DNA of 64,000 nt from an uncultured Bacilli bacterium. GTDB taxonomy: Bacteria; Bacillota_I; Bacilli_A; RF39; UBA660. A program made the position numbers and the translations under genes. A model generated the notes under the pieces. It was given only the letters and a program-made list of their open reading frames with translations. It had not been told where the DNA came from and ran no database searches. The stretch spans positions 4,538-68,537 of the forward strand of contig CALVZO010000002.1 in assembly GCA_944372545.1 (NCBI GenBank), given 5' to 3'. Of the stretch, positions 4,719 through 46,686 are shown one piece after another; within the stretch, counting starts at the first letter, position 1; the number at the start of each line of letters is the position of its first letter.

Positions 4719-4759
4719 TAAGCAAAATATGTCGTCAACGAAGACGTTAAAATAGACAA
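4719..4759. repeat. ~41-nt element containing the small hairpin CGTC-aacgaa-GACG, copy A
   Basis: taagcaaaatatgtcgtcaacgaagacgttaaaatagaca. The 25-nt core tcgtcaacgaagacgttaaaataga (4732..4756) is identical to 45645..45669. Confidence 0.8.
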
Positions 4760-41001: not shown

Positions 41002-44000
41002 ATGAAAAAATTTGTTAGTCTTGATAATAGGAAAGTTTCTTTAGTAGAGGAAGATATTCTAAAACGTTTTATGAAAGACAAAATATTAGATAAGTGTATT
41101 GAAAACAGAAAGAGTAGTCCTTATTGGGTATTTTATGATGGACCTGCTACTGCCAATGGAATGCCAGGATTACACCATATGGTGGCTAAATTCTTAAAAG
41201 ATAGTTTTTGTAAATATAAAACTATGCAAGGTTATAAAGTTTTAAGAAAAGTTGGTTGGGATACACATGGATTACCAGTAGAAGTTCAAGTAGAAAAAAA
41301 ATTAGGTTTTTCTTCTAAAGGTGAAATTGAAAAATATGGTATCAAAGAATTTAATGAAGAGTGTAAAAAGGCTGTTTGGGAAAATGAAAAAGCATTTTGT
41401 GATTTAACTAATAAAATGGGACAATTCATTGACTTAGAAAATAGATATATTACTTATGATAATAAATATATTGAAACAGAGTGGTGGATTTTAAAGAAAT
41501 TCTTTGAGGAAGGATTATTCTATGAAGGAAGTAAGATTCTTCCATATTGTCCTAGATGTGGAACAGGACTTGCTTCCCATGAAGTTGCCCAAGGTTACAA
41601 AGAAGTTTCTGTTGATACCGTAATTGTTCCAATGAAAAAAAAGGGAGAAGATGTATATTTTCTTGTTTGGACAACAACACCATGGACACTTTTATCTAAT
41701 GTAGCAATATGTGTAAATCCTAATGAAGAATATGTTTTATGTAAATCATTAGATTATAAATTTATTGTGGCTAAAAAACTTGCATCTTCAGTACTTGGTA
41801 ATGATTATGAAGTATTAGAAACTTATTTAGGTAAAGATTTAGAATATACTGAATATGAACAATTAATTCCCGAATTAAAAGTAGATAAAAAAGCATTCTT
41901 TGTAACATGTGATACTTATGTAACAATGGATAGTGGTACAGGTATAGTTCATATTGCCCCAGCCTTTGGAGCAGATGATGCCCTAGTTGGTAAAAATTAT
42001 AATCTTCCTTACTTAAATCCAGTAGGAGAAGATGGAAAATATACAGATGGGCCTTGGAAGAATATGTTAGTATTCGATGCTGACTTAGAAGTTATCAAAT
42101 ATTTAAAACAAAATGATAAATTATTTAAAAAACAAAAGATGGTTCATAATTATCCCCATTGTTGGCGTTGTAAATCACCACTTATCTATTATTCTAAACC
42201 ATCATTTTATTTAGAAATTACCAAAATTAAAGATAAAATAGTCGAGAATAATAAAAAAGTTAATTGGTACCCAAGTTATATTGGCGAAAAAAGATTTGGT
42301 AATTGGTTAGAAAATTTAAATGACTGGGCAATATCAAGAAGTAGATATTGGGGAACACCACTTCCATTATGGCGTTGTTCTTGCGGACATGATATTATGG
42401 TGGGATCAATTAAAGAATTAGTCGAGTTATCTATTGAAGATATCAATGAAGATATTGATTTACATCGCCCATATGTTGATGATGTTCATATAACTTGTCC
42501 AAAATGTGGAAAAGTAATGAATAGAGTTAAAGATGTTATTGACTGTTGGTTTGATTCTGGAGCAATGCCTTTTGCTCAATATCATTATCCATTTGAAAAT
42601 GAAGAATTATTTAATACGCAATTTCCAGCAGATTTTATTTGTGAAGGAATTGACCAAACAAGAGGTTGGTTTTACTCACTTTTAGTAATAAGTACTTTTG
42701 TAAAAGAAGTATCTCCTTATAAAAATGTTTTAGTAAATGAATTATTACTTGATAAAAATGGTCAAAAAATGCATAAATCAAAAGGAAATGCTATTGAACC
42801 ATTTGGTATTATGGAAAAATATGGGGCAGATACCGTAAGATGGTATTTACCTTATGTATCTCCAGTTTGGACACCTTTAAAATTTGATGAAGATGGCTTA
42901 AAAGAAGTATATTCAAAATTCTTTAATCCTCTAAAAAATACTTATAATTTCTTCTCAATGTACGCAACTACTGATAATATAGATATTGATGAGTGTAAGG
43001 TAGATATAAGTGAAAGAGAAGAAATAGATAAATGGTTAATTTCTAAATATAATAGTTTATTAAAGGTAGTTACTGAAGGTTATGAAGAATATGATTTAAA
43101 TAAAGTAGTTAGAAATATTACTAACTTTGTATCTGATGATTTATCTAATTGGTATATAAGAAGATGCCGTAATCGTTTCTGGGGTAGTACTTTAGATAAT
43201 TCTAAAAAAGCCGTTTATATAACAACTTATGAAGTTTTAGTTGGACTTTCTAAAATAATTGCTCCAATTGTACCTTTTATAAGTGAAGAGATATTTACTA
43301 AATTGACTAATAAATATTCTGTTCATACAGAAGACTTCCCTAAATATAATGAATCTCTAATAAATTCAGTTTTAGAAGAAAAAATGGATTTAGTTAAGAA
43401 TTTAATTTCGATGGGTAGAATGATTAGGGAAGAAGTTAAAATAAAAGTTAGGACTCCTTTAGAATCTGCAATTATTGATGAAGAAGTTTATAAGAAAATA
43501 GAAGATTTAATTCCTTTAATTAAAGAAGAATTAAATGTTAAAGAAATAATTAAGGAAAAAGACTTAAATAAATATATGAATATTGAAGTTAAACCTAATT
43601 ATAAAGTTGTTGGTAAATTATTTGGTTCTAAAATTAAGGATTATGAAGAATTTTTAAGAGATGTTAATTTAGAAGAATTAAAAAATAATAGTTTAGAATT
43701 TAATGATACTTTAATTAGTGAAGAGATGTATGAATTAAAAATATCTGCTAAAGAAGGATTTAATGTCTTTGTTTTAGATAATTTATTTATCATATTAAAT
43801 ACTAACTTAACAGAAGATTTAATTAATGAAGGTCATGCTAGAGAATTTGTTTCTAAAATTCAAAATTTAAGAAAAGTTAAAGATTTTGAAGTAAGTGACA
43901 GAATTAATATATATTATGACAGTGAATTATTTACAAAAATAATTAATGAATTTAGTGACTATATTAAAAATGAAACTTTAGCAATAAATATTATTAATAA

Positions 44001-44082
44001 AAAGTTAGATACAGAAGAGGTAAATATTAATGGTATTAATGTAAAAGTAGATGTTGAAAAAATAACAAATAAAAAGGACTAA
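41002..44082 (+). CDS. ileS: Isoleucine--tRNA ligase, long type-2 form
   Basis: ENRKSSPYWVFYDGPATANGMPGLHH parallels the Thermus-type IleRS2 N-terminus. KMHKSKGN (KMSKS). 1026 aa. Start moved to the ATG at 41002 downstream of the T-box. Confidence 0.93.
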   Translation: MKKFVSLDNRKVSLVEEDILKRFMKDKILDKCIENRKSSPYWVFYDGPATANGMPGLHHMVAKFLKDSFCKYKTMQGYKVLRKVGWDTHGLPVEVQVEKKLGFSSKGEIEKYGIKEFNEECKKAVWENEKAFCDLTNKMGQFIDLENRYITYDNKYIETEWWILKKFFEEGLFYEGSKILPYCPRCGTGLASHEVAQGYKEVSVDTVIVPMKKKGEDVYFLVWTTTPWTLLSNVAICVNPNEEYVLCKSLDYKFIVAKKLASSVLGNDYEVLETYLGKDLEYTEYEQLIPELKVDKKAFFVTCDTYVTMDSGTGIVHIAPAFGADDALVGKNYNLPYLNPVGEDGKYTDGPWKNMLVFDADLEVIKYLKQNDKLFKKQKMVHNYPHCWRCKSPLIYYSKPSFYLEITKIKDKIVENNKKVNWYPSYIGEKRFGNWLENLNDWAISRSRYWGTPLPLWRCSCGHDIMVGSIKELVELSIEDINEDIDLHRPYVDDVHITCPKCGKVMNRVKDVIDCWFDSGAMPFAQYHYPFENEELFNTQFPADFICEGIDQTRGWFYSLLVISTFVKEVSPYKNVLVNELLLDKNGQKMHKSKGNAIEPFGIMEKYGADTVRWYLPYVSPVWTPLKFDEDGLKEVYSKFFNPLKNTYNFFSMYATTDNIDIDECKVDISEREEIDKWLISKYNSLLKVVTEGYEEYDLNKVVRNITNFVSDDLSNWYIRRCRNRFWGSTLDNSKKAVYITTYEVLVGLSKIIAPIVPFISEEIFTKLTNKYSVHTEDFPKYNESLINSVLEEKMDLVKNLISMGRMIREEVKIKVRTPLESAIIDEEVYKKIEDLIPLIKEELNVKEIIKEKDLNKYMNIEVKPNYKVVGKLFGSKIKDYEEFLRDVNLEELKNNSLEFNDTLISEEMYELKISAKEGFNVFVLDNLFIILNTNLTEDLINEGHAREFVSKIQNLRKVKDFEVSDRINIYYDSELFTKIINEFSDYIKNETLAINIINKKLDTEEVNINGINVKVDVEKITNKKD

Positions 44083-44098
44083 ACAAATGTCCTTTTTT
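44072..44098. terminator. Bidirectional terminator between ileS and the HTH gene
   Basis: aaaaggac-taaacaaat-gtcctttt with A/T runs on both sides. Confidence 0.7.
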
Positions 44099-44103
44099 AA
44101 ATT

Positions 44104-44322
44104 CTATTTTTTTACCTTTTCAATTGTAACTTTTATATTATGGATTTTACACATTTCTAAAAAATCATTTAAGTACATTCTATTTCGCCTGTTTTCTATA
44201 TTATTTATACTATCACGCCCTCTATTAATAGATTCACCAAATTTAGTTTGTGATAATTCAGTCCACTCTCTAATAATCTTGATAATGTCTTTGGCTTCAT
44301 AATTATTTGCGTTTATTTTCAT
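44104..44322 (-). CDS. XRE-family helix-turn-helix protein
   Basis: 72 aa. LSQTKFGESINRGRDSINNIENRR fits the HTH_3 pattern. Confidence 0.6.
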   Translation of the reverse strand: MKINANNYEAKDIIKIIREWTELSQTKFGESINRGRDSINNIENRRNRMYLNDFLEMCKIHNIKVTIEKVKK

Positions 44323-44496
44323 GTTTTTATTCCTTTCGCAAGTAGATTATCATAGGACTTTTATAAAAAGATTAATTTGATTATTAACTATTACTCAAAG
44401 TTTGTTTTATAATACAAATGTATATGATTATAGTTAGTAATCAAATAAAATAGAAAGGTATAGTCCTTTATCATTATGGATTTATTATTTTTAAAT

Positions 44497-45623
44497 ATGC
44501 AAAGAAGTAAAAAATTAAAATTTGTAATTATCTTATCTCTTTTTATTTTAGAATTATTATCGGTATTTCTAACAATAAAATCTTTTTCTAATAAGGAAAT
44601 AGTAGAAATTAAAGAAGAAAATAAAATAAAAAAAGAGAAATTTTCTATGTATATAGAAAATGATACAGGAGAATATACAGAATATACTACATCAGAATAT
44701 TTTCCTGTAGGGTATAATTTAAATTTAGATAAGTCCACTTGTGTAGATAGTAATGATAATACTTTAACGGGAGTATTAACAGGAACAAATAATAGTATTA
44801 CTGTTACTAGTAATAAAACTATGTTTTGTTATCTTTATTTTGATAAGGTTTCAACTGCAGGAGAAATATTTCTTGAAAGCCCAACAACAGGATTAAATAT
44901 AACAATGGAAGGTGGATTATATAGATATCAAGGAACAAGTGTAGATAATTACATATGTTTTGGAACAAGTGATAAATCGACATGTACAGGAAATACCGAT
45001 GCATATATGTATAGAATAATAGGAATCAATTCTTCTGGACAATTAAAACTAATCAAGAAAGAGTCTTTAAATAGTTCAATGCAATGGTATAGTAGTTATT
45101 CATCAAACATAACATGGCCAAATTCAACAATATACTCAAACATAAATGGAAGTAGTTTCCTAAGTAACACAACATACGTACCAAGCGGTTGGAGTAGTAA
45201 AATATCAATAACTTCATGGAAATACGGAGATAACACAACATCAAACACAACCGTAGCAAATCTATATTCAACAGAAAATGGCTGGAGTAGTACAGTATCA
45301 GCGAAAATAGGATTATGGTATTTACATGATTATTATTATGGTTTATCTGGAGGAAATAACTGTTCATCAAATTACAGTACGTGTGTAACAAGTTGGATAC
45401 ACTTATCAAACAACGATAGTGGAGCCCCATCTACAGCGGAGTGGACCATGTCGCGTTACAGTGGAAGCAGCAGTTACAGTGCGTGGGATGTGCGTTCGAA
45501 GGCGGTGTCGCTATTGACTATTTGACTGCTTCGAGTTCGGTTCGCCCAGTCTTCTATCTAACGTCCGAGGTAGAGATAGTGAGTGGAACAGGAACATCAA
45601 GCGATCCATTTATTATAAATTAA
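44497..45623 (+). pseudogene. Frameshifted membrane-anchored surface protein with a C-terminal ...SAW.V...G.V....SSVRPVFYL motif
   Basis: Two overlapping frames (…45525 and 45441…45623) join into AWDVRS-EGGVAIDYLTASSSVRPVFYL if one base is restored near 45493..45495. N-terminal TM helix. The 3' ~200 bp are about 50-57% GC. Confidence 0.65.
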
Positions 45624-45630
45624 CAGACTA

Positions 45631-45672
45631 TAAGTAAAATAAAATCGTCAACGAAGACGTTAAAATAGAAGA
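45631..45672. repeat. ~41-nt element with the CGTC-aacgaa-GACG hairpin, copy B
   Basis: taagtaaaataaaatcgtcaacgaagacgttaaaatagaaga. The 25-nt core at 45645..45669 is identical to 4732..4756. Followed by the terminator gagagatttaaaatctctc plus T-run. Confidence 0.8.
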
Positions 45673-45780
45673 CTTAACCCTTCGAGAGATTTAAAATCTC
45701 TCATTTTTATTTAATTTTTATTTAGTGCTAGTTATTTTTAGAAAATTCCATTATAATATAGTTAGTGTGGAGGTAATTAT

Positions 45781-46686
45781 ATGAAAGATGTAAGAGTAGT
45801 ATTTATGGGAACACCAGAGTTTTCTTTAAAACCACTAGAGGTATTAATTGAAAAAACTAATGTAGTTTTAGTAGTTACTAAGCCTGATGCTTTAGTAGGA
45901 AGAAAGAAAGAATTAACACCTTCTCCAGTTAAAGTGTTAGCAGAGAGTCATGGTATACCCGTTGTAACTCCAAAAAGTATTAAGAAAGAATATGAAAGTA
46001 TTTTAGAATATAAACCAGATTTAATAGTAACTTGTGCTTATGGGAAGATAATTCCAAAAGTTTTAATAGATTACCCAAAATGGGGTTGTGTTAATATTCA
46101 TGCATCAATATTACCTAAATATAGAGGGGCTGCGCCAATTCAGTGGGCTTTAATTAATGGGGAAAAAGAAACTGGTATAACACTCATGTATATGGACGAA
46201 TTTATGGATACAGGTGATATTATCGATATAGAAAAGTGTTCTATAGAAGAAGATGATGATATAGAGACATTACATAATAAGTTAAGTAAAATAGGGGCTT
46301 TTATATTAGATAAGAATTTAAGTAATTTAGTTAGTGGCAAAGCAAGTAGAACTAAACAAAGAGATGAAGATGCCACGTATGCAAAAATGATCGATAGAGA
46401 AATGGAAGAACTAGATTTTAATGATTATGGGAAAAATATAATTAATAAAATAAGGGCCTTTAGTCCATGGCCTCTTACAAAAACCAAAATAAAAGAAGAA
46501 GAAATAAAAATAGTTAAGGCTCATTTTGTTGAGGGGATTAGTGTAGTAAATAAAATATATATAGATAAAAATTCTTTAGGTATTGGTGTAATTGATGGTA
46601 TAGTATATTTTGATATAATTAAGCCAATTGGGAAAAGTAATATGCCAGTTAAAAGTTACTTAAATGGGAAAAAGAATTTGTTTTAG
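45781..46686 (+). CDS. fmt: Methionyl-tRNA formyltransferase
   Basis: VFMGTPEF, NIHASILPKYRGAAPIQ, ~300 aa. Confidence 0.92.
   Translation: MKDVRVVFMGTPEFSLKPLEVLIEKTNVVLVVTKPDALVGRKKELTPSPVKVLAESHGIPVVTPKSIKKEYESILEYKPDLIVTCAYGKIIPKVLIDYPKWGCVNIHASILPKYRGAAPIQWALINGEKETGITLMYMDEFMDTGDIIDIEKCSIEEDDDIETLHNKLSKIGAFILDKNLSNLVSGKASRTKQRDEDATYAKMIDREMEELDFNDYGKNIINKIRAFSPWPLTKTKIKEEEIKIVKAHFVEGISVVNKIYIDKNSLGIGVIDGIVYFDIIKPIGKSNMPVKSYLNGKKNLF

Follow-up and report, generated by a model that had tools for sequence, protein, structure and literature searches.

A GC-rich spike at the 3' end of a lectin-like surface-protein gene in an uncultured gut Bacilli genome is probably an orphaned DGR variable region

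Introduction

Why does a gene in a genome of about 25% GC end in a short stretch of more than 50% GC, in which its own reading frame is broken? The question is raised by a stretch of 64,000 nucleotides (the window, C2:4538-68537) from an uncultured Bacilli bacterium, whose genome assembly (G000) is a 90%-complete MAG of 906,774 bases in 41 contigs. The gene lies between ileS and fmt, and the initial annotation of the window read its 3' end as a module recently imported or gene-converted from a much higher-GC donor, now inactivated by a 1-nt frameshift or possibly phase-variable. When an AT-rich genome shows a GC spike, a structured RNA gene is usually responsible. Diversity-generating retroelements (DGRs) offer a different source of local sequence change. 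In these systems a DGR-type reverse transcriptase (RT), together with Avd and a MutS-like accessory protein, reverse-transcribes the RNA of a template repeat (TR), and the variable proteins have a lectin-like fold with the variable region (VR) near the C-terminus. Here, we report that the spike is very probably a DGR variable region, and that in this genome it has probably outlived the machinery that wrote it.

Results

A GC-rich module ends a gene of the ileS-fmt islet

Sliding-window analysis bore out the spike, with a GC content of 53% at 45400-45580 against a genome mean of 25.5%. The 120-nt windows gave 0.533 at 45400-45519 and 0.517 at 45460-45579, and those of the flanks 0.16-0.35. Measured over G000 in 180-nt windows, GC had a mean of 0.255 and an SD of 0.055, which places the spike about 5 SD above the mean; only 14 regions in the 907 kb reached 0.48 or more, and four of these 14 were the same module in paralogs. 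The core at 45444-45549 was found to be 54.7% GC with 18% A, as compared with 40-42% A both for the more 5' portion of the gene itself and for ileS and fmt. The intermediate composition that had been noticed further 5' in the gene was also recovered, the region 45100-45399 being 33% GC, A-rich and T-poor.

The description of the gene and its small HTH neighbour as an islet holds as well. In five relatives the gap between ileS and fmt is no longer than 72-220 nt, and for this reason the HTH gene and the surface-protein gene are regarded as an accessory insertion. A member of the same gene family lies just upstream of fmt in the relative G023, and small HTH-like ORFs were present upstream of family genes, on the opposite strand, at four further loci (L037, L039, L041 and L048). 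The repeated element downstream of the gene is likewise real; its 25-nt core has nine copies in the genome at up to three mismatches, most of them directly 3' of family genes. The features of the locus and the copies of the module are collected in Table 1.

Table 1. Features of the ileS-fmt islet (window positions) and copies of the GC-rich module elsewhere in the genome (contig:positions).
Feature	Position	Strand	Basis or remark
Small XRE-type HTH gene, divergent	44104..44322	-	Weak Pfam HTH_31 match, E = 7e-4, below the curated cut-off
Truncated surface-protein family ORF, 349 aa	44476..45525	+	ORF list; premature stop after the frameshift
VR, homologous to DGR template repeats; spike core	~45441..45549	+	VR/TR alignment
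Out-of-frame remainder of the C-terminal domain (EGGVAIDYLTASSSVRPVFYLTSEVEIVSGTGTSSDPFIIN, then stop)	45489..45623	+	Translation
Single-base deletion site inside the VR	45500..45501	+	One extra base in 5/5 paralog VRs and 5/5 aligned TRs
TTCGGTTCGCCCAG, GC-rich 3' end of the TR/VR homology, junction resembling an IMH (initiation of mutagenic homing)	45536..45549	+	Alignments
VR-specific 3' flank, last beta strands and stop codon	45550..45623	+	DNA conserved among paralogs and across species
Repeated intergenic element, core ATCGTCAACGAAGACGTTAAAATAG, 25 nt	45644..45668	+	Followed by a terminator-like hairpin
Full module copy	C20:23978-24223
Full module copy	C3:1056-1298
Full module copy	C41:57099-57343
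Full module copy	C16:23-289
Full module copy	C19:14213-14479
Partial tails	C35, C28		At or near contig ends

A genuine frameshift makes the gene a pseudogene

As had been annotated, the frame is interrupted within the GC-rich stretch. The 349-aa ORF ends in SAWDVRSKAVSLLTI and stops there, and the C-terminus continues in the next frame, whose translation matches the conserved tail SVRPVFYLTSDVEI..GTGT..DPFII of the intact family members; this agrees with the earlier assignment to a surface protein with a C-terminal domain of the W..RS...G.V....VRP.FYL type. A single base is missing with respect to five paralogs and five TRs of related species, so the proposed inactivation by a 1-nt frameshift stands. 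An assembly error is excluded by the same deletion in two further assemblies. One of them, GCA_947854765.1 (L050), contains the same ileS-HTH-gene-fmt stretch with eight substitutions in 7050 nt, none of which falls in the VR; its VR is identical to that of the window, deletion included, and a 349-aa product is on record. The other, a short ENA contig (P0121), encodes the same VR residues and the same truncated end. Since both the deletion and the VR are shared by three assemblies, we take the frameshift as real and the VR as frozen, and the gene is a pseudogene with a truncated lectin-like domain in which the frameshift is fixed. Related proteins from other MAGs (P0008, P0010 and P0040) differ in their VR residues.

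The suggestion of phase variation was not sustained. The deletion site (TTCGAAGGCGG) contains neither a homopolymer nor a short tandem repeat, and the sequence is the same in the three assemblies, which makes classical phase variation unlikely at this position. Programmed frameshifting was also considered and rejected, as the site has no slippery heptamer.

Disruption is seen elsewhere in the family, three of the six full VR genes of G000 being affected. The paralog on contig C41 has three in-frame stops and that on C19 has one; both of the disrupted Trp codons have changed from TGG to TGA, as expected from decay under AT-biased mutation. A recoding of TGA as Trp was rejected as the source of these stops, because under table 11 ileS and every other gene can be read through, with TGG.

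The family is predicted to carry an enlarged C-type-lectin-like domain

Homology search returned 289 homologs, all from uncultured Bacilli gut MAGs and with no informative name or Pfam domain, and neither the window protein nor an intact paralog matched any Pfam or NCBIfam family. The fold was approached through an AlphaFold model of the intact paralog P0002 (contig C3, 77% identical), which was computed with 56 aligned homologs and had a mean pLDDT of 89.3. In the model, a membrane helix (residues 3-30) precedes a small beta domain, and the rest of the chain from about residue 130 forms a large alpha/beta domain. Its top fold match in the PDB was the Thomasclavelia ramosa IgA peptidase (IgAse) 9QA6 (E = 1.9e-6, 297 aligned columns); the C-terminal domain of Legionella Lcl (8Q4E) was matched weakly (E = 0.4), and several classical C-type lectins were also among the matches. 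These proteins are alike in fold and far apart in sequence, the identity of the modelled ectodomain being 14% to IgAse and 10% to Lcl, and a profile search against PDB sequences gave no solved-structure match, only a chance hit at E = 0.07. The N-terminal domain of T. ramosa IgAse is a CTLD of double size related to Lcl-C (PMC12237041), and the aligned length suggests that the match of P0002 falls on this domain. The window family is therefore, as modelled, a membrane-anchored protein with an enlarged C-type-lectin-like domain.

The spike coincides with a hypervariable block that differs from template repeats at adenines

A search of the genome with 45380-45630 revealed five more full copies of the module and some partial tails, giving six full and two partial copies in G000. 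In the alignment of the six full copies the GC-rich flanks were almost identical (GAGTGGACCATGTCGCGTT ... TTCGGTTCGCCCAGTCTTCTATCTAAC) and enclosed a hypervariable block of about 90 nt, whose invariant columns were almost all T, G or C. Such a pattern is characteristic of the VR of a DGR. It is in this block that the window copy lacks its one base. The homology to the TRs of relatives runs from GTCGCGTTAC to GGTTCGCCCAG. The 14-nt motif TTCGGTTCGCCCAG at its 3' end is identical in all six VRs of the genome and recurs in the VRs and TRs of relatives; beyond GGTTCGCCCAG the VRs continue with TCTTCTATCT and the TRs with CCCACTATAAC (or CCTTC). A GC-rich IMH-type element with a diverged TR counterpart is thus present, and its function in homing is putative. 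The stop codon lies 74 nt beyond the end of the VR, which accordingly sits at the 3' end of the gene, in a C-type-lectin fold as predicted by the P0002 model (pLDDT 89). Analysis of 12 VR 3' flanks with RNAalifold gave -3 kcal/mol and no covariation, and no conserved hairpin or cruciform of the BPP-1 type was found in them.

As no cognate TR of G000 is available, its six VRs were aligned with five TRs from three other species, and scoring was restricted to columns that are invariant among these TRs. Against these TRs of other species, the window VR mismatched at 11 of 20 template adenines and at 2 of 46 other bases (Fisher p = 9e-6), and the six VRs together at 62 of 120 adenines and 33 of 285 non-adenine positions (Fisher p = 7e-17). 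Non-adenine positions accounted for 2 of the 13 mismatches in the window VR and for 33 of the 95 in all six, the templates again being those of other species. The differences of the window VR from these heterologous templates are therefore almost confined to adenines.

Relatives of the same genus carry a complete DGR cassette

The most complete arrangement was found in G023, where a 561-aa target gene with a VR is followed by TR1, a CdiA_C-like ORF, TR2, a small MutS_I-like gene, an Avd-like gene and the RT gene. TR1 and TR2 are non-coding copies of the module stretch with adenines at the variable positions. The RT has 375 aa and the motifs GLPIGNMTSQ and YMDD, and the Avd-like product is a four-helix protein. 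Family assignments were to Pfam MutS_I, bAvd and RVT_1, with the NCBIfam DGR Avd model below its cut-off. Over 101 nt, the VR of G023 and TR2 are distinguished by 14 positions, each of which is an adenine in the template (14 of 27 A and none of 74 non-A).

Across the fetched loci, taking about 115 nt 5' of the shared motif, TRs were 30-40% A and 33-38% GC and VRs 18-25% A and 44-57% GC. The VR-type junction was detected in 18 of 42 genomes of the genus, with up to 28 copies per genome, and the TR-type junction GGTTCGCCCAGCCCAC in four of the 42, in 6, 4, 4 and 1 copies. A full-length RT is kept in about 15 of the 42 genomes, and ten relatives that have one contain 7-28 VR-type junctions per genome of about 1 Mb. 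The TR units of relatives are scattered over several contigs, and 9 of 13 TR-bearing loci had no RT in the fetched stretch. RT genes with stops or truncation were encountered in G045, G043, G021, G006 and G011, so that decay of the RT recurs in the genus.

Only fragments of the cassette were found in G000

Exact and fuzzy pattern searches, blastn-short and an nhmmer profile of 16 TR units recovered no TR from the 907-kb assembly. The profile matched the six VRs and nothing else, and it did so with its TR portion alone. Short matches to the 3' flank of the TRs (C41:53783, C31:32132, C17:4156 and C25:45512) fall within ordinary coding sequence and were discarded as chance.

For the RT, Pfam RVT_1 gave two sub-threshold matches, both at contig ends. 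A tblastn search with the G023 proteins located a further remnant in the middle of contig C11 (C11:15109-15463), consisting of the C-terminal half of Avd fused to RT residues 1-62, then a stop. The Avd piece (C11:15281-15463) covers residues 58-118 and is 77% identical to the G023 Avd, the RT piece is 80% identical, and the fragment has the same downstream neighbour gene as the G023 cassette, with an IS3-like transposase upstream. The end of C14 encodes RT residues from about 120 to 157 (some 40 residues), then a stop; the start of C18 encodes residues from about 95 to 153 at about 35% identity, with an internal stop and without the N-terminal part. That the three pieces might be one RT gene split by contig ends was examined and rejected, because C11 continues into unrelated sequence and the pieces on C14 and C18 overlap in RT coordinates and carry stops. 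Thus, among the sequences of this 90%-complete MAG, the DGR-clade RT ([LI]GxxxSQ, YxDD) is present as fragments only and Avd as its C-terminal half only. Strain-level diversity of the VR was not seen either, its sequence being unchanged between G000 and GCA_947854765.1 despite 8 SNPs.

Discussion

We hold with high confidence that the GC spike is a DGR variable region. It was asked whether the stretch could instead overlap a structured non-coding RNA gene, as RNA genes often underlie GC spikes of this size in a genome of 25% GC. An Rfam scan of 44000-46000 on both strands gave no family at E <= 1, and every intact paralog uses the stretch as coding sequence for a conserved protein domain, which leaves an RNA gene with practically negligible probability. 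A recent acquisition or gene conversion from a much higher-GC organism, as first annotated, would fit the local GC and the position of the gene in an accessory islet. The same GC-rich tail, however, occurs in at least six paralogs of the genome itself and, elsewhere in the genus, in 17 of the 41 other genomes; it was just such a tail in relatives that the initial annotation had named as evidence against transfer, and the genome GC behind this comparison was measured for G000 only. Moreover, the borders of the module are those of the homology to the DGR TRs of relatives, these TRs are themselves just 33-38% GC, and the differences sit on template adenines, where the excess in the VR arises. What survives of the import reading is a discrete module written in from elsewhere; a high-GC donor lineage as its source is extremely improbable. 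Diversifying selection with recombination between copies, and no retroelement involved, might also produce a conserved framework with variable loops, and it would accommodate the several non-adenine differences among the copies. It does not account for the strong excess of differences at template adenines, for the perfect 14/14 pattern of G023, where TR, Avd and RT are adjacent, or for the remnants of the same cassette in G000, and we consider it very unlikely.

The second part of the reading, that the VR is orphaned in G000 with no active DGR acting on it, follows from the lack of a TR and the presence of RT fragments only, and is quite likely. It has to be weighed against a DGR that is still active, with RT, Avd and TRs in the unassembled tenth of the genome and a transient frameshift, due to be overwritten at the next round of retrohoming. 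Unassembled sequence could indeed contain an intact RT and TRs, for many contigs of this MAG break inside family genes, the RT-like fragments of C14 and C18 touch contig ends, and about 15 members of the genus keep a full-length RT. Against this stand the syntenic cassette site, which is mid-contig and truncated in both Avd and RT, and the stops within the C14 and C18 fragments. In addition, one to six TR units are assembled in relatives where none was found in G000, the VR and its deletion are the same in three assemblies that differ elsewhere, and half of the full VR genes are disrupted. Continued activity is therefore unlikely, and taken together the two parts of our reading, a DGR variable region and one orphaned in G000, are probably right.

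In the relatives, the RNA of a TR would be copied into cDNA by the DGR-type RT with Avd and the MutS-like protein, the template adenines being copied as any base, and the cDNA would overwrite the VR up to GGTTCGCCCAG, which may act as the homing junction; that retrohoming operates in this manner in the genus is inferred from what is established for DGRs in general. In G000 the machinery would have been lost, leaving the VR as a frozen orphan no longer refreshed by retrohoming, and the orphan would then have come to carry the fixed one-base deletion that truncates the lectin-like domain. This order of events, with the DGR lost before the deletion arose, is conjectural.

The same process can be proposed for the composition of the VR, part of this account being measured and part deduced. 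Variable codons in the TRs are AAT or AAC, and invariant residues are specified by GCG TGG, GTG, TCG, GGT, GTC, TTG, ACG and GTT CGC CCA-G. Residues that must stay constant would thus be encoded by adenine-free codons in the TR (GCG, GTG, TCG, ACG, CGC, GGT), and avoidance of A at these fixed positions would already raise GC above the genomic 25%. Randomisation of the remaining adenines in the VR would raise it further, and the GC-rich shared 3' homing motif would add to it. We attribute the GC excess of the VR to these three contributions. The 44 nt 5' of the TR homology (45400-45443) are also GC-rich, at 50%, and TR copying offers no explanation for this; they encode the conserved SGAP...EWTMSRY segment and are near-identical across the paralogs.

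Orphan VRs left after loss of a DGR are already known from Treponema denticola. In this organism one RT/TR serves several dispersed surface-protein genes, and strains without RT and TR keep their targets. It is mainly at adenines that the VRs of these targets depart from the TRs found in other strains, and the authors read them as leftovers of DGR loss (2016, PMC4891356). The window resembles them in its orphan VR. T. denticola belongs to another phylum and differs in RT lineage, accessory set and targets, which are lipoproteins with a C-type-lectin fold of the FGE-sulfatase type; on the side of G000, the VR left behind bears a frameshift that has become fixed, and the cassette site retains a truncated RT/Avd remnant.

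With respect to gene content, the TR - MutS-like - Avd - RT set of the relatives is that of architecture D (MSL-containing) of Wu et al. 2018, which includes the DGR of Legionella pneumophila; in that survey MSL always occurred with avd and never with HRDC, remote targets belonged to non-phage DGRs, and the maximum was seven non-adjacent targets (PMC5758913); the numbers counted here, 7-28 VR-type junctions per genome, are larger. The DGR of Bordetella phage BPP-1 (Mtd, IMH; Guo et al. 2011, PMC3240598) is alike in the adenine-specific transfer from TR to VR, in a VR that ends a gene whose product is a binding protein of C-type-lectin fold, and in a GC-rich element that closes the homology on its 3' side, TR and VR diverging beyond it. 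It differs in having a hairpin downstream of the VR, where no conserved one was found here, and in serving one phage tail-fibre gene, whereas many chromosomal targets and free-standing TRs are seen in this genus. More than one TR per system is also known from other multi-TR DGRs, among them that of Stenotrophomonas with its two TRs and targets of the DUF1566 type (Yan et al. 2019, PMC6642488). Its targets, too, are of the DUF1566 or Lcl-like lectin class; its TRs and targets are clustered, in contrast to the TR units scattered over several contigs in the relatives.

Such scattering suggests a wider view, which we offer tentatively and would doubt slightly more than believe. The genus might possess a distributed DGR network, in which one RT-Avd-MutS-like cassette serves scattered free-standing TR RNA genes and, in genomes of about 1 Mb, some seven to nearly 30 lectin-like targets; the network would collapse repeatedly, and the window would be a stranded node of it. 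Each TR gene would bring its own promoter-like -10 box and a terminator, together with an 11-bp closing stem and a conserved 3' domain, and a genome would have up to six such genes. A non-exhaustive search of the DGR literature found no such architecture of dispersed, self-contained TR genes. If the network exists, its nodes would be recognisable in AT-rich genomes by their GC spikes, whether or not an RT is found.

The locus thus exchanges a reading by horizontal transfer for a mechanistic one. A short, sharp GC spike at the 3' end of a surface gene in an AT-rich genome can be the footprint of adenine-directed retro-mutagenesis, and such footprints are still detectable once the retroelement is gone. 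After T. denticola, this would be a second, independent case of orphaned DGR targets, here with the RT/Avd remnant in view and with decay of the stranded targets apparently under way in G000. This genus of uncultured gut Bacilli appears to give a large share of a genome of about 1 Mb to DGR-diversified lectin-like proteins, and it would be suited to the study of multi-template DGRs and of their repeated loss.

Family genes and their 3' element in G000

In the family gene of the window, the part upstream of the variable region (45100-45399) was found to be rich in A (0.41) and poor in T (0.26), with an AT skew of up to 0.39 and a GC content of 33%, unlike the neighbouring genes, and the initial annotation had correctly remarked on its atypical codon choice. 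Additional fragments of family genes were present at or near contig ends of G000, the genome containing the window, and therefore the family was estimated to have about 10-12 members. This surface-protein gene family is one of the main causes of fragmentation of the G000 assembly. The genome also contains nine copies (up to three mismatches) of a 25-nt element, ATCGTCAACGAAGACGTTAAAATAG, each followed by a terminator-like hairpin. The majority of the copies are located immediately 3' of family genes and at least two are elsewhere. In G023 (locus L027), a relative with a full cassette of the diversity-generating retroelement (DGR), the element also follows a family gene.

TR units and probable DGR loss

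The template repeat (TR) occurs in relatives of the same genus as self-contained units, several per genome (six in G023, four each in G022 and G013), which are spread across different contigs, and the reverse transcriptase (RT) was absent from the fetched stretch in 9 of the 13 TR-bearing loci read. Every TR unit carries a TATAAT-like box and a terminator, and its 3' domain is conserved. The unit also includes an 11-bp stem, in which the 5' leader UAGGUAAUCUU pairs with AAGAUUAUCUA, located 3' of the TR; some of the pairs showed compensatory changes. Between TR1 and TR2 of the cassette in G023 lies a 178-aa ORF in which Pfam recognises a domain resembling the CdiA_C toxin (E = 2e-15).

Downstream of gatB in G000, a short stretch matched the TR-unit leader at 19 of 22 positions (TAGGTGAACTTATGAAAAAGAG vs TAGGTAATCTTATGATAAAGAG), and relatives (L041 and L042) have a TR unit at the same position after gatB. 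The stretch is a weakly supported candidate (pairwise E = 0.009) for the stump of a deleted TR unit. Outside the window, G000 also retains a cassette remnant comprising the C-terminal half of the accessory protein Avd and RT residues 1-62. Adjoining the remnant are genes for an IS3-family transposase and an HTH protein; the cassette loss in this genome could plausibly have resulted from IS-mediated deletion.

Coordinates of features in G000 and in relatives (TR units are examples; further units exist in relatives)
Feature	Genome	Coordinates
TR units	G023	L011:1825-2114, L011:2786-3075
TR units		L041:2374-2663, L044:7511-7800, L045:896-1185, L049:6675-6964
CdiA_C-like ORF	G023	L011:2188-2724
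CdiA_C-like ORF		L048:7088-7624
Leader match	G000	C19:6097-6118
Cassette remnant and adjoining genes	G000	C11:15109-16514
Family-gene fragments	G000	C11:105-443, C21:5797-6078, C25:354-689, C29:19020-20141, C36:44-214, C28:31279-31569, C35:18696-18744
25-nt element, window	G000	45644-45668, 4731-4755
25-nt element, elsewhere	G000	C16:302, C19:14176, C20:23940, C29:506, C35:18659, C41:41850, C41:57357

In the genus survey, the DGR RT was split or contained in-frame stops in other species (G045:C63, G043:C24, G021:C21, G006:C5 and G011:C30). Because such disruptions were found in several species, DGR loss seems to be recurrent within the genus.
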